Positions 10,658 to 61,724 of a DNA stretch of 64,000 nucleotides are shown here, piece after piece. Source of the DNA: a virus; IMG/VR virus record IMGVR_UViG_3300032156_000003, positions 22,330 to 86,329 of that record, one strand, 5' to 3'. The notes under the pieces are model-generated. The model did no database searches and was not told where the DNA came from. It worked only from the letters and a program-made list of their open reading frames with translations. Within the stretch, counting starts at the first letter, position 1. The number at the start of each line of letters is the position of its first letter. The position numbers and the translations under genes are program-made.

Positions 10658-10658
10658 C

Positions 10659-13193: not shown

Positions 13194-13196
13194 GCT

Positions 13197-41756: not shown

Positions 41757-41813
41757 ACCGTTACAACGGTGAATGCTATTGACAATCTCCACAGAAGAGA
41801 TTAGTATTTTGAT

Positions 41814-44031: not shown

Positions 44032-44297
44032 ACCCAGCCTACGCGCTCATGGTCGCGACGTTCATCGTGCTCGGCATCGCCGTGGTGACGTGTCACGACG
44101 GGTGCGAGCCGGAGGATACGAAGTGCGACGGGACGGCGGTAGAAGAGTGTGCGAGCGACGGCGACTGGTACACGGTCGAGAACTGTGCCGAAGTCGGGCC
44201 GGGTGCGTGGGAGTGCTGCGAAACGGCGCTCGTGTGGGAGGGCGCGGAGACGGCCGGGTGCGTGACGGTCGGGGATTGCGACGGAGGTATTGAATGA
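44028..44297 (+). CDS. Cys-rich secreted protein / lipoprotein
   Basis: Hydrophobic signal followed by C; 'C.....KC.G.....C...G.W....C' module as in myxobacterial proteins. Confidence 0.6.
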   Translation: MNPAYALMVATFIVLGIAVVTCHDGCEPEDTKCDGTAVEECASDGDWYTVENCAEVGPGAWECCETALVWEGAETAGCVTVGDCDGGIE

Positions 44298-44875
44298 CCG
44301 CGAAACTCGTTGACCTCGTTGGTAAGGTGAAGACGGGCGCAGCGGCAAAGCGTGTGTGCCTCGCACTGGCGAAGCACTACGGCGCGACCATCAAGTACGG
44401 GCGGGGCGAGCCGCTGATTGGCGTGTTCGGTGCGGCATTGAACGCGCTCGGCATCAAGAACAAAACGCAGTTTGTGAATCACTGCGCAATCACGGTAGGA
44501 GATGCCATCTATCTCCCGTTCAAGCCGGGTGACTCGCAACCGCCATGGAGGCAGGTCGCGACGGTCGCTCACGAGTGCCGCCACGTTCAGCAAGGAGCAG
44601 ACGACCATCTGCTTTTCTGGTTGCGCTACTTCACGAGCAAGGCACACCGGACGGAGTTTGAAACGTCTGCGCTGTCAGTGGATATGGAAGTCATCTACCG
44701 GCTCAAGGGGTACCTCTGCGACCCGTATGCGTTCGCCGAGATACTTGCATGGTACAACGTTCGGTCGAAGGACATCGCCGTGTGCGCGAAGCACCTCGCC
44801 ATCGTGAAGAACACGTTGCAGCGAGGCGGGGAAGTGAGCGAGCAAATCAGGGTTATCGCGAAGGCGTTGGCATGA
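44294..44875 (+). CDS. HExxH zincin-like protein
   Basis: 'AIT.G..IY', 'AHECRHVQQ', 'FE..A'. Confidence 0.65.
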   Translation: MTAKLVDLVGKVKTGAAAKRVCLALAKHYGATIKYGRGEPLIGVFGAALNALGIKNKTQFVNHCAITVGDAIYLPFKPGDSQPPWRQVATVAHECRHVQQGADDHLLFWLRYFTSKAHRTEFETSALSVDMEVIYRLKGYLCDPYAFAEILAWYNVRSKDIAVCAKHLAIVKNTLQRGGEVSEQIRVIAKALA

Positions 44876-45297
44876 GACGTCGCGCCCTCACGTTCGTGCC
44901 ATTGGAGCATGACGAGCAAGTCACGGTTATCAAGTGGTGCCGAGACTACGCCCGATTCCGTTGGCCCGGCCTGTGTTTGCCGAACGGCGACTTCGCGATT
45001 TACGCAACGCCCAACGGTGGTGAGCGGGTCAAGGCGGTCGCGACTCGGCTCAAAGCAGAAGGCGTCAACTCGGGTGTGCCGGACCTGCACGTGCCGGGGC
45101 TCCGGCTGTGGATTGAAATGAAGCGGGTCAAGGGCAGCGTCACGAGCGACGCGCAGAAGGGTTGGCACGAACACCTGTCCAGTATCGGTGACACGGTTGT
45201 GGTAGCCAAGGGCGCGGCGGAAGCGATACGGGAGATAACGAGCGCGGCGACCCTACATGAGCCGTGGCCGAGAACCTACTTCAAGGGCAAACGATGA
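44872..45297 (+). CDS. VRR-NUC nuclease
   Basis: 'EH.EQ', 'PNGG.R', 'EGV.SGVPDL', 'IEMK...G.....Q..W'. Confidence 0.9.
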   Translation: MRRRALTFVPLEHDEQVTVIKWCRDYARFRWPGLCLPNGDFAIYATPNGGERVKAVATRLKAEGVNSGVPDLHVPGLRLWIEMKRVKGSVTSDAQKGWHEHLSSIGDTVVVAKGAAEAIREITSAATLHEPWPRTYFKGKR

Positions 45298-46109
45298 CCG
45301 ACCAACTGCATCTGCCGAGTTGCGGTGTCACGCTCGACGAACTTGAGCGCGCGGCGGTGCTCTGTCTCCAGACGTTCGCGCCGACCGATGCGCCGTACTA
45401 TGGTTGCTTCTCGGGCGGCAAGGACTCGGTTGTAATAAAGCACCTCGCCGCGTTGTCCGGTGTCGCCGTCGATTGGCACTACAACGTCACGACAATCGAC
45501 CCACCAGAGTTGTGCAAATTCATCAAGCGCGAGCACCCGGATGTTGAGTGGGAGCACTCGAAGCACGGGAATTTCTTCAAGCGGATGTTGACGAATGGAT
45601 TCCCAACGCGCCGCGCTCGGTGGTGTTGCGTCGAATATAAAGAGTCACATGTTCCGGTTGGGAGAAGGATTGTTTTGGGAATCCGCGCCGCCGAATCGCC
45701 GCGCCGCCGCAACTCCTGGAAGCAAGTCACGGCGCATAAGCGGACGGGCGAATGGGCTATCAATCCGGTCATCTCTTGGACAGACGATGACGTGTGGGCG
45801 TACATCCGCAGCCGCGCGATCCCCTACTGCTCGCTCTACGACGAAGGGTTCAAGCGCCTCGGGTGCATTGGTTGCCCAATGTCAACGCGGCGTCGAGATG
45901 ATTTCAAGCGGTGGCCTCGATTCGAACGACTGTGGCGAAAAGCGTTCAAGGGGCTATGGGAGAAGCGCATCGGCAAACCGCAGCGCGACGGCCGCGAGTG
46001 GTTCGGCTCCGCGAAGTTCGAGACCTGGGAAGAGATGTTCGAATGGTGGATTTCAAACGATCCGTTGCCGACCGAGGATGATGAGTGTGAAGGGTTGCCA
46101 CTGACATGA
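45294..46109 (+). CDS. PAPS-reductase-family protein (with Cys ligands)
   Basis: PP-loop FSGGKDS, 'RWCC...K', 'GIRAAES.RR', 'RLGCIGCP'. Confidence 0.9.
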   Translation: MTDQLHLPSCGVTLDELERAAVLCLQTFAPTDAPYYGCFSGGKDSVVIKHLAALSGVAVDWHYNVTTIDPPELCKFIKREHPDVEWEHSKHGNFFKRMLTNGFPTRRARWCCVEYKESHVPVGRRIVLGIRAAESPRRRNSWKQVTAHKRTGEWAINPVISWTDDDVWAYIRSRAIPYCSLYDEGFKRLGCIGCPMSTRRRDDFKRWPRFERLWRKAFKGLWEKRIGKPQRDGREWFGSAKFETWEEMFEWWISNDPLPTEDDECEGLPLT

Positions 46110-46639
46110 AAGCATTTACGGTCTACCCCTGGTACGCTTTCGCGTTCACCTCGCTCGGCAAGCAATGTGAAAACCGCACGTGGAAGCCGACCCTTGCGCA
46201 CGGGGAGTGGGTAGCGATTCACGCGGGCGCTCGCAAGCTCGGTGGCGCGCGTCACCCGAAACTCGGGGAGCTGCTAGACCTCGTGAGGGACGCGGAAGCG
46301 GCAGGGTGGGAATCCGAGGTGACGGAGTTCGGCCGGGTGCGCTTCATAGAAACGGACGCACTTGAGCCGACGTGCCTCAAGACCGTGGCCGTCTACGATG
46401 ACCGACACTCGCCCCGCTCCGCCATCGTCGCGGTGGCTCAATTCAACGGGGCAACGCAGGGCATACCGATGCCGTGGGGGCACACAACTGGCTACCAGTG
46501 GCGCTTCACGTCGGTCATGCCATTGGCCCGACCTGTGTCGATACGGGGCGCGCAAGGACTGTGGCGCGTGCCCCCTGTGATGTTGCGAAAGATGGTCGGA
46601 CAGGTGCCGGAGTCGGTACTGGAAGGGGAGAAACTGTGA
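46106..46639 (+). CDS. ASCH-domain protein
   Basis: 'PW.......K..ENR.W', 'AIHAG', 'W......L..P....GAQGLW'. Confidence 0.85.
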   Translation: MKAFTVYPWYAFAFTSLGKQCENRTWKPTLAHGEWVAIHAGARKLGGARHPKLGELLDLVRDAEAAGWESEVTEFGRVRFIETDALEPTCLKTVAVYDDRHSPRSAIVAVAQFNGATQGIPMPWGHTTGYQWRFTSVMPLARPVSIRGAQGLWRVPPVMLRKMVGQVPESVLEGEKL

Positions 46640-46911
46640 AACTCAAAGACGGCGAAACCGTAGTGGTCGCATGGGCGGAGCACGCGAGCGAGCCGGGGTG
46701 GTCCAACCAACTCGTGTGGGTGCTGATTCGGGAGCGCGGAGGGAAGTTGCGCAGATAGGCGTTCCAGCCGAGCGAGCAAAGCGGCGGGATGATTGAGTTG
46801 TTCAACGTGTGCGAGGCGGCGACGCAATCGCTCACGGCCGAAGTGAAGCGGGTACTCGCGTTTGCGGCTGAAGTGAGGCAAGTGATGACGGGAGGAACCG
46901 ATGGACGCTGA
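46636..46911 (+). pseudogene. Small gene with an in-frame TAG at 46756-46758
   Basis: GTG overlaps the previous stop; after TAG the frame stays open for 50 more codons to a TGA overlapping the next gene. Confidence 0.55.
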
Positions 46912-47401
46912 GAAATTCCGCACCTTAATGAACAGACTTGTCGACAGTTTCGAGGACGTCATGGACGATGAAGAGTTGACGCCAGATGAACAGAAGGTGG
47001 CGAAACTGACGCAGGAGCACATGCTCGCGGCCTACTACGAATGGCAGCGGGCTCACACAATCCGAAAACTCACTGAAGAGTGCGACCGTCTTCGCGCCGA
47101 GAACGCCGAACTCCGCACCTCTCTCACAGGCTGGGTTACGTCGCACTCGCCGGGGCCGATGCTGGAAGGAATCACGTTGACAGACGCAATCAGTGCGAGA
47201 TGGGTGAACTCGGACGGGACACCCTACGTTATCGATATGGGCGAGGTGCCCACGCCGTTCACACTTGTCGAGACGACGAACCGAATCTGTCGTGATTGCT
47301 GTCACTCGAAAAGAGCGGCCGTCCCAAAGTGCGACAAGGGTTTTAAGCTAGGAAGTGCGACAACTTGCGAAAGCTACGAGGAAGGCACGCCAACCCCGTG
47401 A
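46901..47401 (+). CDS. Hypothetical protein (coiled coil plus Cys-rich tail)
   Basis: GGAGG RBS. Confidence 0.55.
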   Translation: MDAEKFRTLMNRLVDSFEDVMDDEELTPDEQKVAKLTQEHMLAAYYEWQRAHTIRKLTEECDRLRAENAELRTSLTGWVTSHSPGPMLEGITLTDAISARWVNSDGTPYVIDMGEVPTPFTLVETTNRICRDCCHSKRAAVPKCDKGFKLGSATTCESYEEGTPTP

Positions 47402-47637
47402 AGCGCACATCCCAAGTCATCGTCCGCCTGTCGCTCGCCGAGAAGACGACGCTACAGGACAAGGCCCGCGCGGCCGGGATGACGGTATCGGACTACTCCC
47501 GGACGGCGCTCCTTTGTGACGAGGCGGGTCTAGTCGACGAACTGGGCCGGGTTCGGGCGTTGGCCGATTCGGCACTAGAGCGGGCGAAGGAAGCCGACAG
47601 ACGGGCGCTGAGGGCGCTTACGATGGGGAGAGAATGA
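47398..47637 (+). CDS. Ribbon-helix-helix (MobC/NikA-like) regulator
   Basis: 'KRT..I.VRLS..EK..L..KA..AGMTVSDY.R..L'; coupled to csf1. Confidence 0.8.
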   Translation: MKRTSQVIVRLSLAEKTTLQDKARAAGMTVSDYSRTALLCDEAGLVDELGRVRALADSALERAKEADRRALRALTMGRE

Positions 47638-48380
47638 TAAGCGCTTGCCAAGCGATTTGGAAATCCGCTGATCAACCGGCAGGGCAGCGCGGCAACCTCG
47701 CGGAAGACATTCTCGGAATGTGTGCACTATGTGGACATGATGACGAGAGGACTGTCCCGTTGACAGTTGCGTGTCCACCCGCGAGTTTTGGCGGATGGCA
47801 GCAAATGCGGTGGCCCTCGTCCGACAGAGTTTGTCGAGCTTGCACGTGGGCGATGGAAGGGAAGCCACCGAATACGCTCCGGATGTGGTCCACTCTGTAT
47901 CGAGAGGATGGGGTGAGAACATCGAACGGTCCGGAACTTGGCCCCCGCGTGGGCACGCTCAATAGGGCAGATTTGTCTCCAGTTCTAGAGACGCTGTGCT
48001 TTCCTCCGTCGTGTCGGTGGGCAGTTGGTATCGCCGAGAGTGGCAAGGTGCACATCGTTCCGTACATCCCGATGAACAGCGGCAGCGGAGTGTGGTCGAT
48101 TCGAGTGGACCGCGTGAACGTACATGCGAGCGCCTTTGAGTTTCGGCGAGTGGTCCACAACTTCGCGGTACTGGCTGAGGCTGGATACTCGGCAAGAGCT
48201 ATCATCAACCGCAACCCCTCGACGCGAGACCTTGTGAAAAATGGGATTGAAGTTTGGCGTGAAAACATCTCGGCACTTGGGCCTACGGCGGGGCAGATTG
48301 AGCGACTTGTCGCCATGATGGTCAGAAAGGAAAACGCGAGTGAGTGGAGAGAACGAAGCGAAGCAAGGACCGGAACTTGA
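47634..48380 (+). CDS. csf1: Type IV CRISPR-Cas large subunit Csf1 (Cas8-like)
   Basis: CALCG...VCRAC Zn finger, 'L..PP...W...IAESGK.H'; first gene of the csf operon. Confidence 0.8.
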   Translation: MISACQAIWKSADQPAGQRGNLAEDILGMCALCGHDDERTVPLTVACPPASFGGWQQMRWPSSDRVCRACTWAMEGKPPNTLRMWSTLYREDGVRTSNGPELGPRVGTLNRADLSPVLETLCFPPSCRWAVGIAESGKVHIVPYIPMNSGSGVWSIRVDRVNVHASAFEFRRVVHNFAVLAEAGYSARAIINRNPSTRDLVKNGIEVWRENISALGPTAGQIERLVAMMVRKENASEWRERSEARTGT

Positions 48381-48732
48381 CCTTGTTCTAACTGATATGG
48401 CGGTGGCATGGGTGCGCGCTGCGATGCGATCAGTCGACTCGACAGTGGTGAAGCCGAAGGACTGGTGGGAACGTGCGAGAACGTCGCTCATCACGGCGGC
48501 GGCCGTTGCCGACACGTGGCCGCAGATGGTAGCTCGGCACCTCGGAAAGTTACAGGTTCGAGCAACGACGACAACAACGGCAGAATCGGTAGAGGTCATC
48601 GGCGCGCAACTCACGGAACTCGGTGAGAACGCGTGGCCACGGTTCCGCGCTCTGTGTGAGCGTGACGCGCTGTACATCGTGGCGATGGCACAAGCGGAGA
48701 GCGCGAAGAAGAAGGAGAAGGCACGTGACTGA
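48340..48732 (+). CDS. cas11: Type IV-B small subunit (Cas11-like)
   Basis: ~130 aa all-helical, 'WWER.......AA....W......KLQ'; between csf1 and csf2. Confidence 0.7.
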   Translation: MSGENEAKQGPELDLVLTDMAVAWVRAAMRSVDSTVVKPKDWWERARTSLITAAAVADTWPQMVARHLGKLQVRATTTTTAESVEVIGAQLTELGENAWPRFRALCERDALYIVAMAQAESAKKKEKARD

Positions 48733-49717
48733 AATCTATCATGGAAGGCTAGAGTGGACGGCGACGGCGTTGGACCCAATACATCACGGGGCGGGAACGG
48801 AGGGGAACACGCAGATTCTGCGAATGCAGGATGTCATGCTTCCAGACGGAAGCCCGGCGCGGGTTCCGTTCATTTCCGGGAACAGCATCAAGCACATGAT
48901 TCGTGACGGCGGCGTACGCTTCGCGCTTGAGGCGATGGGTGTTCAGGCGGGGACGTTGAGCAAAGCTGTCGTCGATTTGCTTTTCAGCGGAGGCGCGTTG
49001 ACGAAAAGCGGAGCGGCTGTGAACCTGGCACATGCGAGAGATATCGCGACGCTATTTCCGATTCTGTCGGTGTGTGGATATGCGGCCGGGAACTTCATGC
49101 AGGCGAGCAAGGTGCGCGTCGAACACATGCACCTCGCGTGTGCCGAAAACGAATGGAGGGTTCCGACATCGGCGGCGTCGGTTCCGCAACTTCGGATTCG
49201 TGCCGCTGCGTTTCGCGGGGAAGAGTTCGGGACACGTCATGAGCCGACGCGGGAGCCGCGAGTGTTCGCTCTTCTGACAGAAGCCGACCGTGGTGCGCGC
49301 TTGCGACAACTCACGGGAGACGTACAGAATGGTGAGTCCGAAAAGTCACAACAGATGTATTACGAGTTTCAGACCGTAGCGGCTGGCTCTGTGTGGTTCG
49401 GAGGATTGACGTTTGATGACTTGTCGATATTCGAGCTTGCGGCCCTGCGTTCGGCCTTGGAGCGCGCGGCAGACGGGACAGCCGGAGACGGTTCGATCAT
49501 CTACCGCATCGGAGCCAAGGGTGCGATTGGGTACGGCCGCATGTCATTCCGTTTCGACGGCGGTTTGCGCGGCACGGTTTCTCCGCCGACATACTCATCA
49601 GAAGAGGGAATCATGCCGCTTGGAGAGAAGGCAGACATCGACGCCATGGCTGCTTACGTGAAGCACCTTCGGGAGAAGAGAGACACTATCCTACAATCGC
49701 TGGAGGCTATCGCGTGA
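48725..49717 (+). CDS. csf2: Type IV backbone RAMP Csf2 (Cas7-like)
   Basis: 'TALDPIHHG', 'VPFISGNSIKH..RD', 'LLFSGGAL', 'FP..S..G', 'SQQM.Y', G-loop 'IGAKGAIGYG'. Confidence 0.92.
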   Translation: MTEIYHGRLEWTATALDPIHHGAGTEGNTQILRMQDVMLPDGSPARVPFISGNSIKHMIRDGGVRFALEAMGVQAGTLSKAVVDLLFSGGALTKSGAAVNLAHARDIATLFPILSVCGYAAGNFMQASKVRVEHMHLACAENEWRVPTSAASVPQLRIRAAAFRGEEFGTRHEPTREPRVFALLTEADRGARLRQLTGDVQNGESEKSQQMYYEFQTVAAGSVWFGGLTFDDLSIFELAALRSALERAADGTAGDGSIIYRIGAKGAIGYGRMSFRFDGGLRGTVSPPTYSSEEGIMPLGEKADIDAMAAYVKHLREKRDTILQSLEAIA

Positions 49718-50466
49718 AACCCATCATGGTAACGGCGCACATGTCCGAGCCGATCGTAACCTACGGAGACGGTCTGCACCTTGACGGGCCGCTGGCGTTC
49801 GCGTGCTACCAGGACTTGGACGCAGAGGCACGCGCTATAGTACCCGCCATAGAGTCACCGTGGGCAGAAGATTTCGAGTTGCCGTTGGAGAAGTGGTCTG
49901 GTCCAAGTGAACTCTTTTCGACAACAGACACGCGACTCACAACTGATGGCGTGATAGCACCGGACACCGACGGCGTTCTTTGCGGTGAGGTGTGGGGATG
50001 GCGATGCTCTGCGGCTGTCGCTGTCGGTCCATCGTGGGCAACGACACACGACCATCGCCGAAGGCCAGCGGTTGAAGAGATGGTTCAGTGGTCAGAGGCC
50101 AAGCGACTTGAAATCGGAGGTGGGCCGCGAGCTGCGAGAAACCTCAAGTTCCCGGCGACGACAGTGAGAACGCTTCGGTGGTACGCGGTTGGTGACGGTG
50201 ACAAGGTGCGAGCGCTTCTTTCTCGACACGTCCCGGCGATAGGGAAACTGGCGAGGACAGGTTCAGGCCGCGTGAAGGAATGGATAGTTGAAGAAACGGG
50301 GAATGATTGGTCAACATCCGGTCCGAACGGAGAAGTCATGCGGCGCTTGCCGTCTCGGATGTTGCCTGATTTTCCGACGACGGAAGGAGCGATTCGCGCT
50401 CCGTATCACCATCGTTCCAGGTGGGTGAATACGGTGTCGCCAGAGGCGTGGACAAGTGGTCTCTGA
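49714..50466 (+). CDS. csf3: Type IV RAMP Csf3 (Cas5-like)
   Basis: 'LHLDG.LA', 'LPL', 'W...CS', 'W.AVGD...V..LL....IGK....G.G.V..W', 'RR.P', 'R.PY.H'. Confidence 0.88.
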   Translation: MKPIMVTAHMSEPIVTYGDGLHLDGPLAFACYQDLDAEARAIVPAIESPWAEDFELPLEKWSGPSELFSTTDTRLTTDGVIAPDTDGVLCGEVWGWRCSAAVAVGPSWATTHDHRRRPAVEEMVQWSEAKRLEIGGGPRAARNLKFPATTVRTLRWYAVGDGDKVRALLSRHVPAIGKLARTGSGRVKEWIVEETGNDWSTSGPNGEVMRRLPSRMLPDFPTTEGAIRAPYHHRSRWVNTVSPEAWTSGL

Positions 50467-51277
50467 ACCCGTACTCACAGATGAGGACCGACGGTTGTGG
50501 GCGATGTGGGAGCGCGCGGCGGTCGCGTGGTCCAAGACGCTGGCGCACTCTGTTCGTGTTGATAGGGCGCAAGATACGCTACGAAGATTTTCAGAGGCGT
50601 CGAATGACAACGGGTGGCGCTTAATGTGGTCCGGCGGTAAGGATTCAACCGCCATGGCGCACCTCGCGGCGAACGCTGGAGTTGGTGTTGTGCGAGCGGT
50701 GAGCGTCAAGGATGACCTCGATTTTCCCGGTGAAGAAGAGTACGTGCAAGAGCGAGCGCGAGAGTGGGGAGTTGATGTTGAGGTTATTCACCCGACATGT
50801 TCTCTTGTGGAACTCGTGTCCAACGACAACGAAGCGTTCATTCCTGGGGCGGACATCCACGGGCGCGGAACGCTGCTTTCGCGGGCAGGGTTCTACCCTC
50901 TCTTGCGAGATCACAGGGCGTCTCACGGAAACTATCACATCGCTCTTGGGTTGCGCACCGCAGAGTCTCGCGCACGCACGGTAAACCGCGCGACACATGG
51001 AACCATCTACCGCAAGAAGGACGGTCAACTGGTGTGCCAGCCGATAGCGGATTGGGCAGACATCGACGTGTATGCCTATCTGTTTTCTAACGATATCGAG
51101 GTGCTACCTCTGTATCGCTGCGTGCGACTGTCCGAGTCTCCGGGCCGCGTCCGAAAGAGTTGGTGGCTGCCTGGAAAGAGCGCGACGCAGGGCGGGACAA
51201 TTTGGTTGAGGACGTACTACCCGAGCCTGTTCTCAAAGCTCCGGGAGATGTTGCCGCAGCACAACATTTTCGCTTGA
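50456..51277 (+). CDS. Type IV-B-associated CysH-like (PAPS reductase family) protein
   Basis: WSGGKDS PP-loop, 'GLRTAES..R', 'P..DW...DV.AY'; no CC/CxxC ligands; overlaps csf3. Confidence 0.9.
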   Translation: MVSEPVLTDEDRRLWAMWERAAVAWSKTLAHSVRVDRAQDTLRRFSEASNDNGWRLMWSGGKDSTAMAHLAANAGVGVVRAVSVKDDLDFPGEEEYVQERAREWGVDVEVIHPTCSLVELVSNDNEAFIPGADIHGRGTLLSRAGFYPLLRDHRASHGNYHIALGLRTAESRARTVNRATHGTIYRKKDGQLVCQPIADWADIDVYAYLFSNDIEVLPLYRCVRLSESPGRVRKSWWLPGKSATQGGTIWLRTYYPSLFSKLREMLPQHNIFA

Positions 51278-51304
51278 CACGAGCAACAGCCTGTAATAGG
51301 CTGT
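51273..51304 (+). promoter_or_regulatory. Promoter with CTTGACA-N3-GCAA motif and overlapping inverted repeat
   Basis: TTGACA 51274-51279 overlaps the cysH stop; TAGGCT -10; ACAGCCT-GTAAT-AGGCTGT at 51286-51304. Confidence 0.65.
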
Positions 51305-51319
51305 CGAGTGAGGTGGGCG

Positions 51320-51589
51320 ATGCGCGGACGGTGGTTTATTTCTCCACATGCGGTTAGGCGTTTCATGGAGCGTGCGTTGCGCGGTGCAACATACGAAGAG
51401 GCGCTTGAGAAACTGATTGTCGCGTCCGAGACGGCACGACTGATTCGAGAGGACCACAATCCCGGCGTCGACCTGTACAGGACGAAGGCAGAGCCAGGTG
51501 GACGTGGCAGAATACGCCTTCTCGTGTCGCGTCGGTTACCGGGAGCGCCACAACTCATGACGGTTATTGTCGGGGGAAGGGAAGCATAA
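51320..51589 (+). CDS. Small protein with 'HAxxR' motif (DUF4258 / RNase-toxin-like)
   Basis: 'ISPHAVRRF.ER' and C-terminal 'LMTV'. Confidence 0.45.
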   Translation: MRGRWFISPHAVRRFMERALRGATYEEALEKLIVASETARLIREDHNPGVDLYRTKAEPGGRGRIRLLVSRRLPGAPQLMTVIVGGREA

Positions 51590-51590
51590 A

Positions 51591-52226
51591 ATGATTGTAG
51601 AAAATATTGTGTCAGAGATTTCAAAGCTTTCACAATTGGCAGAATCCAAAAGAGTTTACGCGTACAACGCCATCGTGCGCGCCGCGTCAAACATCGTGCG
51701 CGACGTTTCTGGAGACCCGGCGACGTGTCCGCAACTCATCCCGGCAGCAAGGATAGTCGGGAACTCCTACAACCCAAACACGGTCGCCGGTCCAGAACTC
51801 GACCTGCTAGAGCAATCGATGCGCGCAGACGGCATTACGATGTGCGTCGTTGTCATGAAGGATGCAGACGAATGGACGGTTGTAGACGGGTTTCACCGGC
51901 ACAAGGTGGGGACGTCCAGACTTGGACGTCGGTACATTCCATGCTCGGTGATAGACCGTCCATTGGCCGATCGTATGGCTTCGACGATTCGGCATAACAG
52001 AGCGCGTGGTAAACATCAGGTTGAACTCATGGGTGCTCTTGTGCGTAGCATGTTGGGTCTCGGGTGGGATGATGAACGTATTGCTGAATCACTTGGGATG
52101 TCCATAGAGGAGCTTCTCAGATTGAAACAGGTTGTTGGTGTTGCTGTTCTCATGGCCGCCGAGCGATATGGAGAGTTCTACGGACGTGACGATGAGCCTC
52201 CTTTGCCACCGGAGGATGAGCCGTGA
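51591..52226 (+). CDS. IbrB-like ParB/Srx domain protein
   Basis: 'N.YNPN.VA.PE..LL..S...DG', 'VVDGFHR', 'RMASTIRHNRARGKH', C-terminal HTH. Confidence 0.9.
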   Translation: MIVENIVSEISKLSQLAESKRVYAYNAIVRAASNIVRDVSGDPATCPQLIPAARIVGNSYNPNTVAGPELDLLEQSMRADGITMCVVVMKDADEWTVVDGFHRHKVGTSRLGRRYIPCSVIDRPLADRMASTIRHNRARGKHQVELMGALVRSMLGLGWDDERIAESLGMSIEELLRLKQVVGVAVLMAAERYGEFYGRDDEPPLPPEDEP

Positions 52227-53026
52227 GCGGTAATATTTGGATAACAGGTGATCCCAATAATGTCCCGTTGGATAGGGGTGAAAGGTCACTTTGGGTCTAC
52301 TCTGACAAGTGGGTCACACCTGTTGTGGAGCGAAAAATGACATTTGACAAATATCTTAAAGACCCATGGGGTTCCATTGCAGATATTGATCGTGTGATTG
52401 TAGTCGGATTGACGGATATTATCACGCCGTCCAACCGTGTAAAAACAGGTCCATTTCTTACCGAGCCGTGGCGCGGACCAATGCGAGAAAGCATTGACCG
52501 TAGGTTATTTATAGGAGAACCGTGGCGCGCATGGTGGCACTGGGGATGTGTTGGTGGTAAATGGGATGATATAAATCACAGTTTCGCGTTGGAGGGGAAA
52601 TGGAATCAAGCAATGGATGGGAGGATAACTGACCCGTGTTCAATTGCTGAATTCTTACGAGTCGGGAAAGGCACAATCAAAACACATCGGAGCGCGCCTA
52701 CATTTGGTGGAATTCACATTGATGTCAGAGCAGTATCCAATGATATACGGAACGCCTATGAAAAAGAGAAGGCACGAGCTTTCGAAGAAGAAACCACGTG
52801 GCGAGGTGTAGTTAAACGGCTAGGTGCGTTTGCACAATCGAATTGCCCATGGCGCGTTATGCCGTCACGAATGAATCTGTTTAAGGTTTTGGGTGAACTC
52901 ATCCCTCCTAGAATTGTTGCGACGGACCTTCCAGTAGATACGCTGGTCTCCGATTGGCATAGCAAAACCGTACAACTTGTTGATTGTATTGTAAAAGAAT
53001 TCACGGGGACGCAATGGACACGCTAA
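52223..53026 (+). CDS. Hypothetical protein between IbrB-like and IbrA-like genes
   Basis: Coupled ORF, lower GC. Confidence 0.6.
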   Translation: MSGNIWITGDPNNVPLDRGERSLWVYSDKWVTPVVERKMTFDKYLKDPWGSIADIDRVIVVGLTDIITPSNRVKTGPFLTEPWRGPMRESIDRRLFIGEPWRAWWHWGCVGGKWDDINHSFALEGKWNQAMDGRITDPCSIAEFLRVGKGTIKTHRSAPTFGGIHIDVRAVSNDIRNAYEKEKARAFEEETTWRGVVKRLGAFAQSNCPWRVMPSRMNLFKVLGELIPPRIVATDLPVDTLVSDWHSKTVQLVDCIVKEFTGTQWTR

Positions 53027-54066
53027 CGGTATCAGTAAGGCGCATCAGATGGTTATTTCGGGAATTTCCGCGCGTTGTGGTGAGCGTATCCAGCGGGAAG
53101 GATTCGACCGTCCTCTACCACCTCGCACTGACGGAGGCGGAGCGCGCAGGACGGAAGGTCGAGGTGTTCTTCCTCGACCAGGAGGCCGAGTATCAATCCT
53201 CAATTGACATCATCTCACAATGGATGCGGCACCCGCTCGTGATTCCCAAGTGGTATCAGGTTCCGCTGTTGCTAACGAACGCAACATCCCACAGGGATGT
53301 TTTCCTACGGGCCTGGTGGCCCGGTGAGAAGTGGATCAGGGATAAGGACCCGATTGCAATCAGCGAGATTGATGGGCACTACCCAAACAGGTTCTACGAT
53401 TTTTTCCCGTGGATAGAGGCCCAGGCGAGTGAGAAGACGGCGTTCCTCGTCGGGATTCGGATGTGGGAGTCACTCAATCGCCAGCGTGCGACGAAGATCC
53501 ACGCTGGGTATGAAAACTACGGATGGAGCACGAAGACCAAGAACCCGTTGTCGTTCCGGTTCTATCCTATCTACCATTGGCAACCGAGGTACATTTGGAA
53601 GTACATTGCGGACAGTGGCGTTCCATATAACAACGTTTACAATAAGATGTACATGAAGTCGGGAGTCGACCTGTGCAAAATGCGCGTAAGCAATCTCGTA
53701 CACGAGCAAGCGTATCGATCGCTACTTTCATTGCAAGAGTACGAGCCAGAAACCTACGAACGTCTCATCACCAGACTCGGCGGAGTACACGCTGCGGCAC
53801 TCTACGCGAACGAACAAGGCATATATAAGGCTGACAAACTTCCGACCGCTCATCCGTCGTGGTTATCATACAGAGACTATCTTTTGGAAACCACGCCAAG
53901 CGAATACAAGGAAAGATTTTCCAAGAGATTTTCCCGACAGCATACAGACGAGGCTACCTGCAAACAACAGGTCAAACAGCTGTTGTCCAATGATTGGGAG
54001 GGAAACCTACCCATCTTGCGCCCAAAGGCGGAAAGGCTGCGGGAGACGTGGTGGAACAGATTATAG
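53014..54066 (+). CDS. IbrA-like PAPS-reductase / DUF3440 protein
   Basis: 'RI...F.EF....VS.SSGKDS', 'F.DQEAEY', 'VGIR..ES..R', 'FYPIY.W', 'YN..Y..M', 'MRVS', 'EPET'. Confidence 0.88.
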   Translation: MDTLTVSVRRIRWLFREFPRVVVSVSSGKDSTVLYHLALTEAERAGRKVEVFFLDQEAEYQSSIDIISQWMRHPLVIPKWYQVPLLLTNATSHRDVFLRAWWPGEKWIRDKDPIAISEIDGHYPNRFYDFFPWIEAQASEKTAFLVGIRMWESLNRQRATKIHAGYENYGWSTKTKNPLSFRFYPIYHWQPRYIWKYIADSGVPYNNVYNKMYMKSGVDLCKMRVSNLVHEQAYRSLLSLQEYEPETYERLITRLGGVHAAALYANEQGIYKADKLPTAHPSWLSYRDYLLETTPSEYKERFSKRFSRQHTDEATCKQQVKQLLSNDWEGNLPILRPKAERLRETWWNRL

Positions 54067-54704
54067 AGTCGACATGGTCCGGCATAGTGATGACGCACCC
54101 ATCCCGCGCACATCAACAGAACTGGTTTCATGGGTGGCCACGCATGGTTGATCCCGGGATAGGGCTCACGCGGAACTTCTGCGAGGCGATGAGGAGCGCA
54201 GCAACCGCAGGGGAGACGTGGTCCGTCGTCGCACAGGATGACGTTGAACCGTGTCGCGGTTTGGTATCCAATTTGGGGCGGATTCTCGGCGAAGTTCCAT
54301 TCGGTTTTGGTGTAGTTTCTTTTTTTTCCATCGGGAGGGTTCGCGATTGGAATGACATTCGGAGTGGGGTAAGGTGGAGGGCTCATAGGCGAGGAGAATT
54401 ACTTTGGATTTTGCTCCTAGCCGTCCGCACAGAAATTGCGCATGCGGTCGCTAACGGAGTCGAGATGCAGAGGCGACCGGCCGATGCAAACGGCTGTCGC
54501 CATACCACAACCGGATGTGATGAGCGCCTTTCGTTGTGGCTCGACGCGAACGGGGTCATGTCGGCAACACACCTTCCTAGCCTGGTGCAGCATCGCGGGG
54601 AAAGGTCGTTGGCAGGGCACGGGTGGACAATAGGTGGAAGGGCTAGAGTATCACCTACCTATTCGTACAACACGCTGGAAGCCCTGTATGGAGAATGGCA
54701 ATGA
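54048..54704 (+). CDS. Glycosyltransferase-like protein (GT-A fold)
   Basis: 'M.HPSR', 'VAQDDV' DxD-like motif, 'D..L..W', 'PSLVQH...SL'. Confidence 0.6.
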   Translation: MVEQIIESTWSGIVMTHPSRAHQQNWFHGWPRMVDPGIGLTRNFCEAMRSAATAGETWSVVAQDDVEPCRGLVSNLGRILGEVPFGFGVVSFFSIGRVRDWNDIRSGVRWRAHRRGELLWILLLAVRTEIAHAVANGVEMQRRPADANGCRHTTTGCDERLSLWLDANGVMSATHLPSLVQHRGERSLAGHGWTIGGRARVSPTYSYNTLEALYGEWQ

Positions 54705-56412
54705 CCACGTGCTTGTGGTGTGCCAGACCCACGTGCAACGCCAGTGGCAACGGGCGATAGGTTCCCTGTTCGACCTCCCATGCGGCGGGCAGGGCGCGCT
54801 TGTCGAGACGCCGTGGGAGAGGGCCGTGCGTCGCGGGCAGGCCATGGCACCCATCCTGCGAACGCTCACGCCGTATAGCATCCCGGACACGCCGTTCACC
54901 ATCGTGCACTACGGGCTTCTTTCGGCGTGGCAGAAGACCCTTGACGAGCGCGGATACCCCGTCGTCATTTTCGATGAGGTGCAGGAACTTCGGCACTCGG
55001 GAAGCCTGAAATACTCGGCTGCGTCGCTACTGTCATCGGCCGCCGACTGTGTGTGGGGTCTGTCCGGTACCCCCATCTACGGCTACGGCGGAGAGATTTG
55101 GAACGTGCTGAACGCAATAGACTTTCACTGCCTCGGTTCATACGACGCCTTCTCTCGCGAGTGGTGCGCGGGGTACGGCGAGAAGGTGATAGAGAAGCCG
55201 GACGTGCTCGGGGACTACCTTCGGCGCGAAGGGCTCATGCTGCGACGTCGACAGGCAGAGGTACAGCCGGACCTACCGCCCATCATGCGTCGCGTCCAAG
55301 ACGTTGACCACGATGAGTCGTTGCACGCGGAGTTGATGAAAACGGCCGTAGCACAGGCACGCGGATTCAACCAACTTGAATGGCACCGACGCGGGCAAAC
55401 GGCACGTGACATCGACAGGGCGTCCCGACATGCGGCCGGGGTAGCCAAGGCTCACCAGGTCGGCGCGTTTGTGGCGGGGCTGCTGGAAGCCGGAGAACGA
55501 CCCCTCGTGTTCGCCTGGCACCACGACGTCCACGACATCCTGCAAACTACGCTGTCTGCCTACTCGCCGTCCGTGCTCACCGGGCGCGAGACCGAAGCGC
55601 AAAAGGACAAGGCGCTACAGCGGTTCATCGAAGGAAAGACCGACGTGGCGTTGATGTCCCTACGAACTGCGGCCGGTCTCGACGGCCTACAGGCCAGGGC
55701 GACTTGCGTGGTGATGGCAGAACTCGATTGGTCGCCAGCCGTGCATGGTCAGTGCGAAACTAGGGCGGCCCGGCTTGGAGTCGACGGCAATGTGAAGGAA
55801 ATCCCGAGCTACTATTGCGTTGCGCAAACCGGATACGACATGGTGATGATGGATGTGCTCGGGCTCAAGACCTCTCAATTTGTCGGCATCATGGGAGACG
55901 TGCCGGAGTCGTCCGAGGACAGGAAGGCGCAAGACGAGGCTGTGGCGCGGCGCATTCAGATGCTCATTCAACGGCTGTCGGGAACCGAAACTAAACTGGA
56001 ACCGCGCGGCATCGTCGAGATGTTGGAAAACGGGGAAGTCATTTGGGTAGTGTATCAGTTTGAAGTTCCGGGCCAGAGTCGTGAAAAATTATCGGAGAGC
56101 AGCGATCTCCCCAGCGGCGCATGGCGCGATACCGAGGTGCCGAACCATCGTGCGCAAGTGCCCGACCTCAATCTCAGCATTCGACTTTTTCTTCTTGTGC
56201 GGTCCCTTCGGAAGGTTCGGGAAGGTCATCGGGCCGAACCGCACCAGCCAGTTATGTTCACGCTCGGTCATCGTGAATCCCGGAGCGCACTTTTCAAGCA
56301 TTTCTCTAATCTGCTTGAGAGGAATCGTTCCGAACGACGACATGGCTTACCTAGGCCGCTTCCTCTATCGAGTCGATCTGATTTTGGGCTGGCGTCGTCT
56401 GGCTCATCTTGA
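54688..56412 (+). pseudogene. SNF2 helicase lacking motif I; native stop displaced by the IS
   Basis: Has motif Ia (VLVVC), DEVQ, LSGTP, GLDGLQ, ELDWSP, Q.E.R..R but no Walker A. The pre-insertion end was ...ENGEVIW*. Confidence 0.7.
56089..56343 (-). CDS. HicA-like toxin candidate
   Basis: 84 aa basic; 'H...V......P..H......G.LR.M...LGI' pattern. Confidence 0.55.
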   Translation of the reverse strand: MSSFGTIPLKQIREMLEKCAPGFTMTEREHNWLVRFGPMTFPNLPKGPHKKKKSNAEIEVGHLRTMVRHLGIAPCAAGEIAALR

Positions 56413-56818
56413 TTTCGGAGATCGACAACCCAGGAGTCCGGGCATCTGCATCAACTCGGTTGAGGCCGTCCAGGGCCAACCCTGTGCGGCGTACCTCGGC
56501 GAGGGCTTCGGACCATTCCTCGGCGTTGGGGCGGTTGATCTGCGCGAAGAAACCGATAACCTGATCCCGAAAATTAGCGAAATCTGGTGCGTCGGCCGCT
56601 ATGTCGAACAGAACGGAGTTGTAGCTGTCCCTGAACCGGCACAGGGCCGTCCCGCGATCCTCTCCACCTGCGGCGAGGCCACCAGGTTGGACACCATACA
56701 TCCAGAACCCGTCCCCCTCATCGCTTAGCAAGACCTGTCCACGGATGTCCACGCCAGCCACGAAACCGGTGCCAGCAATCAGGTTACGGAACGAAAAAAT
56801 CATGGGATACTTTTTCAT
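56351..56818 (-). CDS. HicB-like antitoxin candidate
   Basis: GAGG RBS; 'E.DGFW......PGG....G.....A' pattern; adjacent to the HicA-like gene. Confidence 0.55.
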   Translation of the reverse strand: MKKYPMIFSFRNLIAGTGFVAGVDIRGQVLLSDEGDGFWMYGVQPGGLAAGGEDRGTALCRFRDSYNSVLFDIAADAPDFANFRDQVIGFFAQINRPNAEEWSEALAEVRRTGLALDGLNRVDADARTPGLSISEIKMSQTTPAQNQIDSIEEAA

Positions 56819-56937
56819 AGTGACCTCTGGAGGCTGTGCCGATGGCCTCCGCATGGTTCTGTATATAAGATAGTGCCGCCCAAGGGGTAGGGCAACAATG
56901 GAGCCCTTGTCAACGCCGAACATGAGTTCAGGGATGG

Positions 56938-57765
56938 TTACGGGTTGAGCATACCGACCAACTCTTCGATGCTCCACACGTGATCCGCGACTCCCGCTTC
57001 CATGACCGGGGTGACGCGCAGGGTCTTGTGAATCCGGCAGAAGTTGTAGTGCATGAAGTGGAGCGCGACGGCCGCGATGTGGTTCTCCACCTTCTTGCTG
57101 AAAGCGTTGGTCAACCGCGTGAACCGCCGCATGCTCATCCGCATCGTGAGGTTCTGGCGCTCTACGTAGCTCGTGGAGATGTGTTTGGGGTCGGGGTTGC
57201 CGGTTACCACGTCGGTCTCCGTCCCGGTGCACACGGGCGGGCTATAGCGCTTCTCGCCGTTGGGGTCCGTGCCGTACAGCTTTATGAGCACCGCGTAGTC
57301 AATCTCGGAACCGAACGCGCCTTCGACAGCCTGAAGGTACGGCTTGTGACCGTCGCTCGTGAGCTGCACGCGCTTCGCAAGGCGGGAGGCCAAGTCCGAG
57401 ATGAACTGCGCGGCGTCTTCGGCGTTCCTACCGCCGACGTGCCAAGAGGGAACCAACTTCGTGTCCGCGTCGATAGCCGTCCAGGTCCAGACGTCGCCGA
57501 TGCCCTTCTCACCCCTCATGTTCGCGGGGATGTTCTTCTGCTTGGCGTAGACGAAGGACCAGATCTCGTCGACCTGGACGCGCTCGCAAGGCAGTTTGAC
57601 GAGCGTTTTGTGCTGGTAGGCATCGCAGGCCGCGCCGAGGTCTAGGAGCAACTTGATGACGGTGTTGATCGCGGTGTCGGTCATGCGGGCCGTGGCACGG
57701 AGGCTGTTTCCCTCGACCAGCGCCGCGACGATCCGAACCTGCTTCTCTTTTGTGATCCTGTTCAT
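56938..57765 (-). CDS. IS1-family DDE transposase (single ORF)
   Basis: N-terminal HTH 'EGNSLRATAR', 'DEIW', 'W.W.A.D', 'SDG', 'TS.VER.N...R....R..R'. Confidence 0.92.
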   Translation of the reverse strand: MNRITKEKQVRIVAALVEGNSLRATARMTDTAINTVIKLLLDLGAACDAYQHKTLVKLPCERVQVDEIWSFVYAKQKNIPANMRGEKGIGDVWTWTAIDADTKLVPSWHVGGRNAEDAAQFISDLASRLAKRVQLTSDGHKPYLQAVEGAFGSEIDYAVLIKLYGTDPNGEKRYSPPVCTGTETDVVTGNPDPKHISTSYVERQNLTMRMSMRRFTRLTNAFSKKVENHIAAVALHFMHYNFCRIHKTLRVTPVMEAGVADHVWSIEELVGMLNP

Positions 57766-57800
57766 AACTATAATATGCTACAGCGCTCAAGCATTGTCAA

Positions 57801-57829
57801 GCTCTTTTTGTCAGTTTGACAAAAAGAGC
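57801..57829. promoter_or_regulatory. Perfect 13-bp inverted repeat between divergent genes
   Basis: GCTCTTTTTGTCA-GTT-TGACAAAAAGAGC; contains a TTGACA box. Confidence 0.7.
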
Positions 57830-57871
57830 AGAATGCCTGTTGACGGTCATTTTTGATGGTGCTACAAGGAA

Positions 57872-59032
57872 ATGGTCATGAAGAACACCACCTCCACTAC
57901 TACAGAATTTCGAACTCCAGGGCAGTACATTGAAAAACTATTGCGCGAACGTGGATGGACCCAGCGCGTGCTGGCAATAGTGCTGGAACACGACGAAACC
58001 GGCCTCAATAAAATTGTAGCCGGGAAGAGACCAGTGGCGGCTGGCTTGGCCATCGCCCTTGGAGAAGTGTTTGGAGTTGCTCCAGAGATGTTTTTGGAAC
58101 TTCAAAAATCATACGATTTGGCTCAGGCCAGAATTGTGGAACGACCGGACCCTGGGCGCACAACCCGAGCGCATCTTTTTGGAGATCTTCCAGTCGCTGA
58201 GATGATTAAGCGTCGATGGCTAGACGCAGAAAGTATGCGCGATGTGGCAATGGTTGAGGCTTCATTAATAAAGTTTTTTGGTGTGAATTCGACGGATGAA
58301 ATAGAAGTCCTCCCACATGCCGCGAAAAAGACTTGCGTTACCGGCCAAGTGACACCGCCTCAACTGGCATGGCTATATCGCGTCAAGGAAATTGCTGGGG
58401 AGATGATCGTCGGCAGGTATTCGGCGAATGGAATGCGAACGGCAGTAACAAAATTGAGTGCGCTTCTGGCATCGGCAGAAGAGGCCAGAAAGGTCCCCCG
58501 CATACTGGCAGAGTCGGGTGTCCGATATGTGATTGTCGAGTCATTGCCAGGAGCAAAGATTGACGGTGTTGCATTCTGGTTGAATGATTCTTCACCCGTC
58601 ATCGGCATGACCATGAGATATGATCGTCTCGATAATTTCTGGTTTGTTCTTCGACACGAATTAGAACATATTTTACGTTTGCATGGTCATTCTTCTGTAA
58701 TGTTAGATTCGGAGCTTGAAGGAGAACGCGCCGGACTTGGAGAGAGCATTTCCGAAGAGGAACGAGAGGCCAACGTGGCCGCCGCAGAGTTTTGTGTTCC
58801 ACAGCGGCAACTTGAAAAATTCATAGCGCGAAAAAGTCCATTGTTTTCCGAGAGAGATATTCTCGGCTTTGCGAACACACTGCAAATCCATCCTGGTCTT
58901 GTTGCAGGACAGTTGCAGCACAAGACCGGACGGTACGACCGTTTCAAGAATCATCAAGTGAAAGTGCGATCTATCGTTGCCCCTGGCGCGATGGTCGATG
59001 GGTGGGGTGATGTTGCCCCTGTTGGAATGTAA
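57872..59032 (+). CDS. HigA-like XRE HTH fused to ImmA/IrrE metallopeptidase
   Basis: 'PG..I..LL.ERGWTQ..LA', 'F.L.LQ..YDL', 'R.DNFWF.L.HELEH', 'E..AN..A'. Confidence 0.9.
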   Translation: MVMKNTTSTTTEFRTPGQYIEKLLRERGWTQRVLAIVLEHDETGLNKIVAGKRPVAAGLAIALGEVFGVAPEMFLELQKSYDLAQARIVERPDPGRTTRAHLFGDLPVAEMIKRRWLDAESMRDVAMVEASLIKFFGVNSTDEIEVLPHAAKKTCVTGQVTPPQLAWLYRVKEIAGEMIVGRYSANGMRTAVTKLSALLASAEEARKVPRILAESGVRYVIVESLPGAKIDGVAFWLNDSSPVIGMTMRYDRLDNFWFVLRHELEHILRLHGHSSVMLDSELEGERAGLGESISEEEREANVAAAEFCVPQRQLEKFIARKSPLFSERDILGFANTLQIHPGLVAGQLQHKTGRYDRFKNHQVKVRSIVAPGAMVDGWGDVAPVGM

Positions 59033-59043
59033 GGAGTAGAGCG

Positions 59044-59526
59044 ATGGCAAGGAAACATCAGGAATGGCAAAGTGTAATACGACAATACAGACTCGAAACA
59101 GGACAGAAGGAAGTCGATATTCACGACGTTGTAAAATACGCAGTGGAAAAACTTAGATGGAGTCCCCCGAGTCCAACCGACCCGATGGAGATGCTTGCCA
59201 GGGAGTGCGCCAGGTCGTTGCGCGAAGAGACGCGAACGGATAGCAAGACCGGAAGACCATACCGAGTCAATCATGCCTACAGGGTGGGTTCTGGAGATGG
59301 ACAGTTAACGCTATGGATTGATATCGAAGATGCGACTCGTAAGCAGATGCACCTATCGTTAATGCAACGTCGCGAACAGATGGTTGGTGATGCGGTTCAG
59401 TTATCCTTTGATATGGATCACTGGAACGGAATTCATCCAGGCGAAGAGCCAATATCTGTTCCGCTCGATTTTGAACCTGACGTCGAATGGCGGAAGAATT
59501 CTGAATCAGAAGGGAAGGCGAGTTAG
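59044..59526 (+). CDS. Hypothetical cargo protein coupled to XRE-ImmA
   Basis: AAGGAG RBS 11 nt after the previous stop. Confidence 0.65.
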   Translation: MARKHQEWQSVIRQYRLETGQKEVDIHDVVKYAVEKLRWSPPSPTDPMEMLARECARSLREETRTDSKTGRPYRVNHAYRVGSGDGQLTLWIDIEDATRKQMHLSLMQRREQMVGDAVQLSFDMDHWNGIHPGEEPISVPLDFEPDVEWRKNSESEGKAS

Positions 59527-59831
59527 TCGTCTTTCTTCCTCCATCGCGCTTGTGCAGCTAGTCGTGCTATCTCTCGTCGTTTTCGCGCCGACAGCTTCGC
59601 TGCCCTTGCAGGACCGCCCTTCTTGCCACCGAGACGACCGAGCGCGACAGCGGCAGGGTTCTTTCCGTCGTCGGTGGGCTCCTCTTCGGCCTCGTCTTCG
59701 GGCGTGTCTTCGTCGGCGTCCGTTGTCGCTTCGTCCGTGGCCTCGGCGACTATCGAGGCGGCGAGTTGGTTGACGTCCAGGTGACCGCGTTTCGGCTTCG
59801 GCTTCGTTTTCTTGCGTGCTTGAGCGTTCAT
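59523..59831 (-). CDS. Small basic/acidic IS-associated protein
   Basis: 'D.NQLA..IV', 'KNPAAVALGRLGG.KGG.ARA.KLS...R.EIA..AA.ARW'. Confidence 0.75.
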   Translation of the reverse strand: MNAQARKKTKPKPKRGHLDVNQLAASIVAEATDEATTDADEDTPEDEAEEEPTDDGKNPAAVALGRLGGKKGGPARAAKLSARKRREIARLAAQARWRKKDD

Positions 59832-59948
59832 GCTGTCAAGGTAAACCGTCGCGGGGTCGGGCGCAAGGTGGGCGGAACATCAAACTGATACACTACCGTC
59901 ATTTGGTAGCGCTTGACAACGGTTACCCGCGAGCCCTACGCTGGATGT

Positions 59949-61649: not shown

Positions 61650-61651
61650 AA

Positions 61652-61710
61652 GCCGAAACCGCCTACGGGCGGTCGGCGCGGCTGGCTACCGCGCCCTGAT
61701 GAGGCAGCCA
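61652..61710 (+). ncRNA. Hammerhead ribozyme, type II
   Basis: GCC-GAAA-CCGCC(TACG)GGCGG-TC^-GGCGCGG(CTGGCTA)CCGCGCC-CTGATGA-GGC-AGCCA; complete core plus loop-I/3'-tail pseudoknot. Confidence 0.92.
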
Positions 61711-61724
61711 AGGAGGAGGGGAAC

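Follow-up and report, generated by a model that had tools for sequence, protein, structure and literature searches.

Type IV-B CRISPR-Cas genes of a contractile-tailed phage

The virus represented by IMG/VR record IMGVR_UViG_3300032156_000003 (86,329 bp, with no end repeats), of which bases 22330-86329 form the 64,000-bp stretch analyzed here (the window, whose numbering is used below), carries a cassette of type IV-B effector genes of the clustered regularly interspaced short palindromic repeat (CRISPR)-Cas kind, namely csf1, cas11, csf2 and csf3 with a CysH-like gene behind them. The left part of the window includes genes for a tail sheath, a tape measure protein, a baseplate wedge and a large terminase, and the virus is therefore a contractile-tailed (myovirus-type) phage of approximately 86-96 kb. 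A single public DNA run, a sediment metagenome that is probably the source, and no RNA run was listed as containing the stretch. Neither a tyrosine integrase nor a serine recombinase is encoded in the 86-kb record. CheckV estimates the record to be approximately 91% complete, and a 95,903-bp contig in the database encodes a product identical to the 89-residue product of 51320-51589, so that the record may have been trimmed by approximately 9.6 kb, placing approximately 9% of the genome out of view. The cassette and its adjoining genes are:

47398-47637, + strand: ribbon-helix-helix (RHH) gene for a NikA/MobA/RelB-like DNA-binding protein; GTG start; GTGA overlap with the upstream open reading frame (ORF) 46901-47401
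47634-48380, + strand: csf1, type IV large subunit; ATGA overlap with the RHH gene; PADLOC typeIV_Cas8/Csf1, 7.8e-19
48340-48732, + strand: cas11, type IV small subunit; 41-nt overlap with csf1; PADLOC typeIV_Cas11, 2.2e-9
48725-49717, + strand: csf2, Cas7 backbone subunit; GTG start; 8-nt overlap with cas11; PADLOC typeIV_Cas7, 3.3e-65
49714-50466, + strand: csf3, Cas5 subunit; GTGA overlap with csf2; PADLOC typeIV_Cas5, 6.5e-37; NCBIfam TIGR03116, 3.3e-15
50456-51277, + strand: putative CysH-like PP-loop ATP pyrophosphatase (CasCysH-like, of a divergent lineage); 11-nt overlap with csf3; Pfam PAPS_reduct, 8.6e-13
51308-51589, + strand: 93-residue protein of no known family, co-travelling with the cassette; homologues beside type IV-B genes in relatives

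The first six of these ORFs, which a preliminary description of the sequence had joined into one operon, are all present and intact, and overlap one another on the + strand. Profile typing of the proteins, which that description had proposed, returns type IV Csf1, Cas11, Cas7 and Cas5 (PADLOC). The zinc finger that it had seen in Csf1 corresponds to four cysteines of a zinc-ribbon motif, CxxC...CxxC (C30, C33, C67 and C70, aligned with 21 homologues). The overlapping start of cas11 is supported by the closest type IV-B relative, contig L004 (its Csf1, Cas11, Csf2 and Csf3 are 62%, 62%, 75% and 71% identical to those of the window), the Cas11 of which aligns with that of the window from residue 1 onward. 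Among solved structures, Csf2 is matched best by its type IV-B counterpart in PDB entry 7JHY (5.5e-9 with the single sequence, 1.7e-15 with a profile). An AlphaFold2 model of Csf3 (predicted local distance difference test score, pLDDT, 78.9) matches the Csf3/Cas5 chains of three type IV-A complexes (8rc3_F at 2.2e-12, 7xg1_B and 8rc2_F; range 2e-12 to 2e-8), which confirms for this subunit the repeat-associated mysterious protein (RAMP) fold on which the assignment had been made to depend. The expected PP-loop motif is present in the CysH-like protein as SGGKDS.

No repeat-spacer array occurs in the 64-kb window or anywhere in the 86,329-bp record, nor does the record, with approximately 9% of the genome possibly unseen, encode Cas1, Cas2, Cas6 or a DinG-type helicase (Helicase_C_2); the absence of all of these, reported earlier for the 64 kb, thus extends to the sequence outside the window (approximately 9.6 kb possibly excepted), where an array or a cas6 gene might have been sought. 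The locus therefore has the whole set of features by which type IV-B is defined (PMC7038947, PMC8175902): csf1, csf2 and csf3, a Cas11 gene between csf1 and csf2, and an adjoining cysH-like gene, together with the absence of an array and of adaptation, Cas6 and helicase genes. The cassette is almost certainly a genuine and intact type IV-B effector set, csf1-cas11-csf2-csf3, with a CysH-like gene. PADLOC, Pfam, PDB and fold matches agree with the claim that the type IV-B module of this contractile-tailed phage is complete, lacks an array and includes a CysH-like gene; in the earlier interpretation as a whole, the type IV-B identity was right, and the reading of the RHH gene was wrong, as discussed below.

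Related loci

The Csf2 protein has 286 homologues in the database, many of them 45-88% identical and almost all unnamed, and 48 columns are invariant in an alignment of 20 homologues (45-83% identity). Pattern scans located 28 related loci (designated here by L numbers), 18 of them on IMG/VR contigs and 10 in cellular genomes, mostly of Actinomycetota, plus one Trueperaceae metagenome-assembled genome (MAG). The order csf1-cas11-csf2-csf3 is kept across the 28 loci, with cas11 detected in 16 (tblastn, E <= 1e-4), and a gene of the 3'-phosphoadenosine-5'-phosphosulfate (PAPS) reductase family directly follows csf3 in 25. The Csf2 tree places the window within a clade of six viral contigs and the Trueperaceae contig (support 100/99). 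No match to the operon was found by blastn among GenBank phages.

Five of these relatives have Csf1 proteins that are 80-130 residues longer than that of the window and overlap cas11 in another frame; their tails terminate in QLSLF (L005, L007) or Q(G/Q)DLF (L006, L008, L023), resembling beta-clamp-binding motifs. Neither the window Csf1 (248 residues) nor that of L004 (255 residues) has a clamp-docking tail of this kind.

A Cas6e-type gene (Pfam CRISPR_assoc, approximately 1e-18) is coupled upstream of csf1 in three actinobacterial loci (L024 2771-3340, L026 6266-6829, L030 6340-6897), and the same gene can be discerned by eye in L025, L027, L029 and L031, all seven loci being array-less within 8 kb. 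Three of the four zinc-ribbon cysteines of Csf1 are missing in L024, L026, L027, L029 and L030; all four are kept in L025 and L031.

The CysH-like protein

An AlphaFold2 model of the CysH-like protein (pLDDT 82.8) shows the adenine-nucleotide alpha-hydrolase fold; the solved structures closest to it are the PAPS domain of FAD synthase, TtuA, CysH/adenosine 5'-phosphosulfate (APS) reductases, TilS and LarE. The CasCysH proteins of type IV-B loci keep the PP-loop (SGGxDS/T) and lack the C-terminal catalytic cysteine of PAPS reductases, and AMPylation has been proposed as their activity (PMC8175902). The window protein likewise combines SGGKDS with the absence of that cysteine: its 50 C-terminal residues include no cysteine, and it is devoid of a CC...CxxC Fe-S motif. 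The paralogue encoded at 45264-46109, by contrast, has a CC...CxxC pattern of the Fe-S type; it is absent from the sister phage L035 (below). Motifs in common with Cas-linked CysH proteins are an N-terminal LTDxDRxxW-type motif, S-G-K-D-S, GxRxxES and a C-terminal W..Y; the PP-loop and the other motifs are invariant across the Cas-linked proteins.

A tree of the PAPS reductase family unites 20 Cas-linked proteins in a single clade; the window protein pairs with that of L023, the Trueperaceae MAG (100/100), and the pair is sister to the Cas-linked clade (93/83) on a branch of 2.9 units. A profile of the 20 Cas-linked proteins matches the window protein over nearly its full length (73.6 bits) and the paralogue 45264-46109 over the core only (63.1 bits). 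Membership of the window protein in CasCysH is therefore probable, though not clean. A predicted complex of Csf1, Csf3 and the CysH-like protein (22-row alignment for each) scored 0.03, which says nothing either way.

The gene behind csf3 is not always of the same descent. The CysH-like protein of L004 groups with that of L009 (98/94) while their Csf2 proteins sit in different clades, and thus the enzyme gene has evidently been exchanged between type IV-B loci. At L017 the slot after csf3 is occupied by a radical S-adenosylmethionine (SAM) gene (9508-10740, Pfam 2.4e-12), and at L014 (10246-12499) by a DUF3440 PAPS reductase gene and a ParB-like gene; such a DUF3440/ParB pair also occurs in the window, 0.3-2.8 kb downstream of the cassette.

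The RHH gene and the left edge of the cassette

The RHH protein (Pfam NikA-like, 3.3e-10) is 94% identical to its counterpart (2938-3177) in L035, a 93.5-kb contig of a sister phage, the DNA being approximately 92% identical over that gene alone. Homology between the window and L035 stops at the last two RHH codons, beyond which L035 has unrelated small ORFs and a radical-SAM gene in place of csf1. No RHH homologue was found in the 28 related type IV-B loci. Since the gene is retained in L035 next to other cargo and is absent from all 28 loci, it evidently belongs to the phage backbone, where it borders a variable slot on the left, and is not a component of the cassette; it may influence whatever gene lies downstream of it. 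Its inclusion in the operon by the preliminary description is thus not supported, nor is the suggestion that it autoregulates the operon in the manner of anti-CRISPR-associated (Aca) proteins, because it is not co-inherited with the cassette and the repeats upstream of it are not kept in L035.

These repeats are two perfect copies of the 11-nt sequence AAGTGCGACAA in direct orientation (47327-47337 and 47353-47363, 26 nt apart) just 5' of the RHH start, situated in different reading frames of ORF 46901-47401; they were rejected as an RHH operator for lack of conservation in L035. Small DNA-binding genes do occur just before csf1 in two relatives (HTH_3 of the XRE type in L006, 6e-11; a weak HTH_11 match in L004, 0.0028), and the gene in this position elsewhere is primase-like (L009 and L017), an integrase (L008) or of the Cas6e type (the seven actinobacterial loci). 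A DNA-binding regulator directly before csf1 is therefore possible, but to judge from these loci it is not a conserved feature of the cassette.

The accessory island

Comparison by tblastx shows that, to the left and right of the operon, the window and L035 are collinear (44144-47628 of the window with L035 1-3168; 59910-63693 of the window with L035 5911-10846). Between these blocks there is no match except for a relocated transposase. The segment and the transposase are:

Approximately 47630-59900: accessory island of approximately 12.3 kb, absent from the corresponding slot of L035, which has approximately 2.7 kb of other genes
56938-57765, - strand: IS1-like DDE transposase, toward the right end of the island; Pfam DDE_Tnp_IS1, 2.3e-7

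The island includes the type IV-B cassette, the 93-residue protein gene, a ParB-like gene, a DUF3440 PAPS reductase gene, a glucosyltransferase-like gene, an SNF2 helicase gene, the IS1-like transposase gene and an HTH-M78 gene. The copy of the transposase in L035, 85-92% identical, is at a different site (17479-18378); L035 also has a TnpB-type gene (11907-13469). Among the genes flanking the window cassette that were tested in L004, none is held in common except the 93-residue ORF 51308-51589. From the lack of the island at the L035 slot and the lack of shared flanks in L004, the cassette is evidently cargo in a hypervariable, swappable accessory island, and evidently moves between unrelated phage backbones.

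The homologue of the 93-residue protein in L004 is 82% identical and encoded upstream of csf1. Homologues also flank the type IV-B genes of L005, L009 and L017, and more are found in the database on contigs equal in size to those of the Csf2 relatives P0004 and P0005. The gene is thus probably a member of the cassette. Its product matches no Pfam, PHROG or PADLOC family; the only hit, a marginal one by profile comparison, is the C-terminal tail of GyrB (E = 0.003).

The presence of an IS1-like transposase toward the island's right end, and the absence of the island from L035, would also be expected if the cassette were an inactive passenger, recently gained with an island containing an insertion sequence (IS) and of no use to the phage. 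This is highly improbable, because the five genes are intact and tightly coupled and keep the invariant residues of their families, homologues of Csf2 at 45-88% identity are numerous, and at least 18 viral contigs have an entire cassette.

Three divergent genes of the PAPS reductase family are found within 9 kb (45264-46109, 50456-51277 and 52984-54066). The last of these carries DUF3440 and is downstream of the ParB-like gene, with one ORF between them, forming an IbrA/IbrB-like pair.

Such a concentration of genes could mean that the CysH-like protein, the PAPS reductase paralogues, the ParB-like protein (phrog_2159, 5e-51) and the glucosyltransferase-like protein take part in modification of phage DNA, the Csf complex serving as a scaffold to hold the nucleic acid. 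The nearby DNA methylase and SNF2 helicase genes would suit such a pathway, as would the DUF3440 PAPS reductase and ParB genes straight after csf3 in L014 and the clamp-binding-like Csf1 tails of five clade relatives, which link those proteins to replication. The window Csf1, however, has no clamp tail; the ParB/DUF3440 pair is found at only one of the 28 related loci and the PAPS1, ASCH, glucosyltransferase-like and SNF2 genes at none; phages often have PAPS reductase and ParB genes anyway (PHROG families); and the genome encodes neither DpdA/TGT nor a methylase of the SpoU/TrmL type. A DNA modification pathway is accordingly a poor candidate, and very unlikely.

RNA partners, helper genes and promoters

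No array is present within 8 kb of any of the 28 related type IV-B loci. The SNF2 helicase encoded 3.3 kb downstream of the cassette was considered as a DinG-like partner and rejected, such a gene being near none of the related loci. Upstream, the string of coupled genes continues without a real gap through two 40-residue ORFs (46636-46911), ORF 46901-47401 and the RHH gene; a candidate non-coding RNA at 46640-46900 was ruled out, since the two coupled 40-residue ORFs occupy the region. A scan of 39-57 kb for promoters and terminators gave fewer sites than shuffled sequences, and the sole promoter-like site on the + strand is at 41779.

Silencing by a guided complex has to be weighed against these results. 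The complex would borrow host CRISPR RNAs (crRNAs) or a non-CRISPR RNA of the phage, bind complementary DNA or RNA, and repress genes of the host or of rival elements as type IV-A does. Csf3 and Csf1 are both kept and conserved, Csf1 with its four zinc-binding cysteines; the Cas6e-type gene coupled to csf1 in several actinobacterial relatives hints at handling of crRNA in some type IV-B lineages; and type IV-A provides a precedent for interference without a nuclease (PMC11519345). Nevertheless, beside the cassette there is no Cas6, array, helicase partner or conserved non-coding RNA, and not even the relatives with Cas6e have an array within 8 kb, so that guided silencing is decidedly unlikely.

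Hammerhead ribozymes of type II (Rfam RF02276, 43.6-54.9 bits, + strand) were found in the window (61651-61713), L035 (9212-9274), L017 (12006-12071) and L023 (11705-11770). Those of the window, L017 and L035 directly precede the ribosome-binding site and start codon of a gene. Three copies (window, L017 and L023) are downstream of the type IV-B genes, and the L035 copy is at the same backbone position as that of the window; the 20.8 kb of L035 examined have no type IV-B genes. A role for the hammerhead as a substitute for Cas6 was rejected, because it occurs with and without nearby type IV-B genes and before ribosome-binding sites. From the copy in L035 and the location before ribosome-binding sites, we read the hammerheads as a feature of these phages and not of type IV-B.

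Comparison with known type IV systems

Type IV-B loci are already in print for plasmids, prophages and viruses (PMC7038947, PMC10848311, PMC11656645), and the phage cassette is a system of a known kind; what is new is its boundary at the RHH gene, the island, the 93-residue protein gene, the divergent CysH-like protein and the tail-less Csf1. Recruitment of an enzyme, sponging of crRNA and silencing with a non-CRISPR guide are likewise published hypotheses for type IV-B (PMC7038947, PMC8175902, PMC7937560).

The type IV-B locus on the megaplasmid of Mycobacterium sp. JS623 (PDB 7JHY), whose complex is a double filament of Csf2 and Cas11 on heterogeneous RNA of 55-60 nt (PMC7937560), has the same set and order of csf1, cas11, csf2 and csf3 and, like the window, no array, Cas6 or helicase; the cysH-like gene is shared with type IV-B loci generally. 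Unlike that of JS623, the window cassette resides on a phage, its Csf2 has low similarity to the JS623 protein outside the N-terminal half, and its CysH-like protein is of a divergent lineage. The putative catalytic Asp42 of JS623 Csf2 is located in a two-residue insertion that is missing from the window clade, which has an invariant Gly-Asn there, and thus cleavage of RNA by the window Csf2 would not be expected.

A Csf filament might act as a sponge for crRNAs of the host, or for other guide RNAs, and block CRISPR interference in this way, as a multi-protein anti-CRISPR that would not have to target anything. Loading of RNA by the JS623 complex shows no sequence preference (PMC7937560), and such a sponge has been put forward before (PMC7038947, PMC8175902). 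The window cassette, which lacks an array and Cas6, resides on a phage without an integrase and is part of a variable island of cargo, a kind of region in which counter-defence genes are often found, would be a plausible setting for it. A sponge would, however, not explain why an enzyme gene with an invariant PP-loop follows csf3 almost universally, co-expressed type I-E crRNAs were not loaded by the JS623 complex (PMC7937560), and five proteins are a costly device compared with known anti-CRISPRs (PMC7038947). A sponge pure and simple is therefore unlikely.

The type IV-B genes of actinobacterial prophages (PMC7038947) and of the archaeal virus family 'Fuxiviridae' (PMC10848311) resemble those of the window in combining effector genes and a CysH-like gene on viral DNA without an adaptation module. 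In contrast to these, the element that carries the window cassette is a contractile-tailed phage of bacteria without an integrase, and the clade of its Csf2 consists almost wholly of viral contigs; the Fuxivirus also has a mini-array, whereas the phage has no array.

The cultured actinophage SPI1 of Skermania (KR011061; L034 3831-7464) is the only source of a Csf2 match among 50,697 GenBank phage records. Its Orf40-43, annotated as hypothetical like all of the genes concerned, are Csf1, Cas11, Csf2 and Csf3 (PADLOC 1.9e-28, 5.9e-15, 1.2e-66 and 2.1e-36), followed by the 239-residue Orf44, which has no PADLOC match; the SPI1 and window Csf2 proteins are 26% identical.

Type IV-A systems (a Csf complex with Cas6/Csf5, an array and DinG; PDB 7XG1, 8RC3 and 8RC2) have homologous Csf1, Csf2 and Csf3, and it is on type IV-A Csf3 chains that the Csf3 model superposes best. 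Unlike type IV-A, the window has no array, Cas6 or DinG, and it has Cas11 and the CysH-like gene, as in type IV-B.

Possible function of the cassette

By homology with the JS623 complex, Csf2 and Cas11 would polymerize on RNA of approximately 55-60 nt with no need for a CRISPR guide, and Csf1 and Csf3 would cap the filament. The CysH-like enzyme would use ATP by means of its PP-loop, probably to adenylate a nucleic-acid or small-molecule substrate held by the filament. The AMPylation proposed for CasCysH (PMC8175902) fits with this, since fold relatives of the CysH-like protein adenylate their substrates, TtuA and TilS doing so on tRNA bases. This mechanism of a ribonucleoprotein combined with adenylation, drawn by analogy, is offered tentatively and may well be wrong. 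As for the benefit to the phage, the status of the cassette as cargo on a phage without an integrase suggests a role during infection, most likely in counter-defence or in competition with other mobile elements and not in adaptive immunity. The best explanation as a whole, to which we assign a probability of approximately 0.55, is a genuine type IV-B cassette carried as cargo, probably encoding an RNA-scaffolded filament with an adenylating enzyme that serves the phage during infection.

Several observations weigh against this explanation. There is no candidate RNA partner next to the operon, which has no non-coding flank, and the sole match in the Rfam scan is a distant hammerhead. The Cas-linked profile separates the CysH-like protein only modestly from an unrelated paralogue (73.6 versus 63.1 bits). 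Given the radical-SAM gene of L017 and the DUF3440/ParB genes of L014, adenylation may not be the common denominator of these loci. Finally, approximately 9% of the genome is possibly missing from the record (CheckV; the 95,903-bp contig).

One further version would make counter-defence enzymatic: the filament would capture short RNAs, including the guide RNAs of the host, and the CysH-like protein would adenylate or otherwise mark them, disabling RNA-guided immunity in lytic infection, perhaps with help from the 93-residue protein. Although it is improbable, this would, if true, give type IV-B its first function and constitute a class of anti-CRISPR not seen before.

With the limits of the cassette set, the RHH gene being outside and the 93-residue protein gene probably inside, there is guidance as to which genes to clone, and the unannotated type IV-B module of SPI1, in a cultured phage, is a possible phage-host test system for deletion and RNA pull-down. 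To our knowledge, type IV-B is the only CRISPR-Cas subtype without a known function, and each well-described carrier narrows the options for it. In this phage, the lack of an integrase and the swappable nature of the cargo argue for a payoff during infection rather than for plasmid maintenance.

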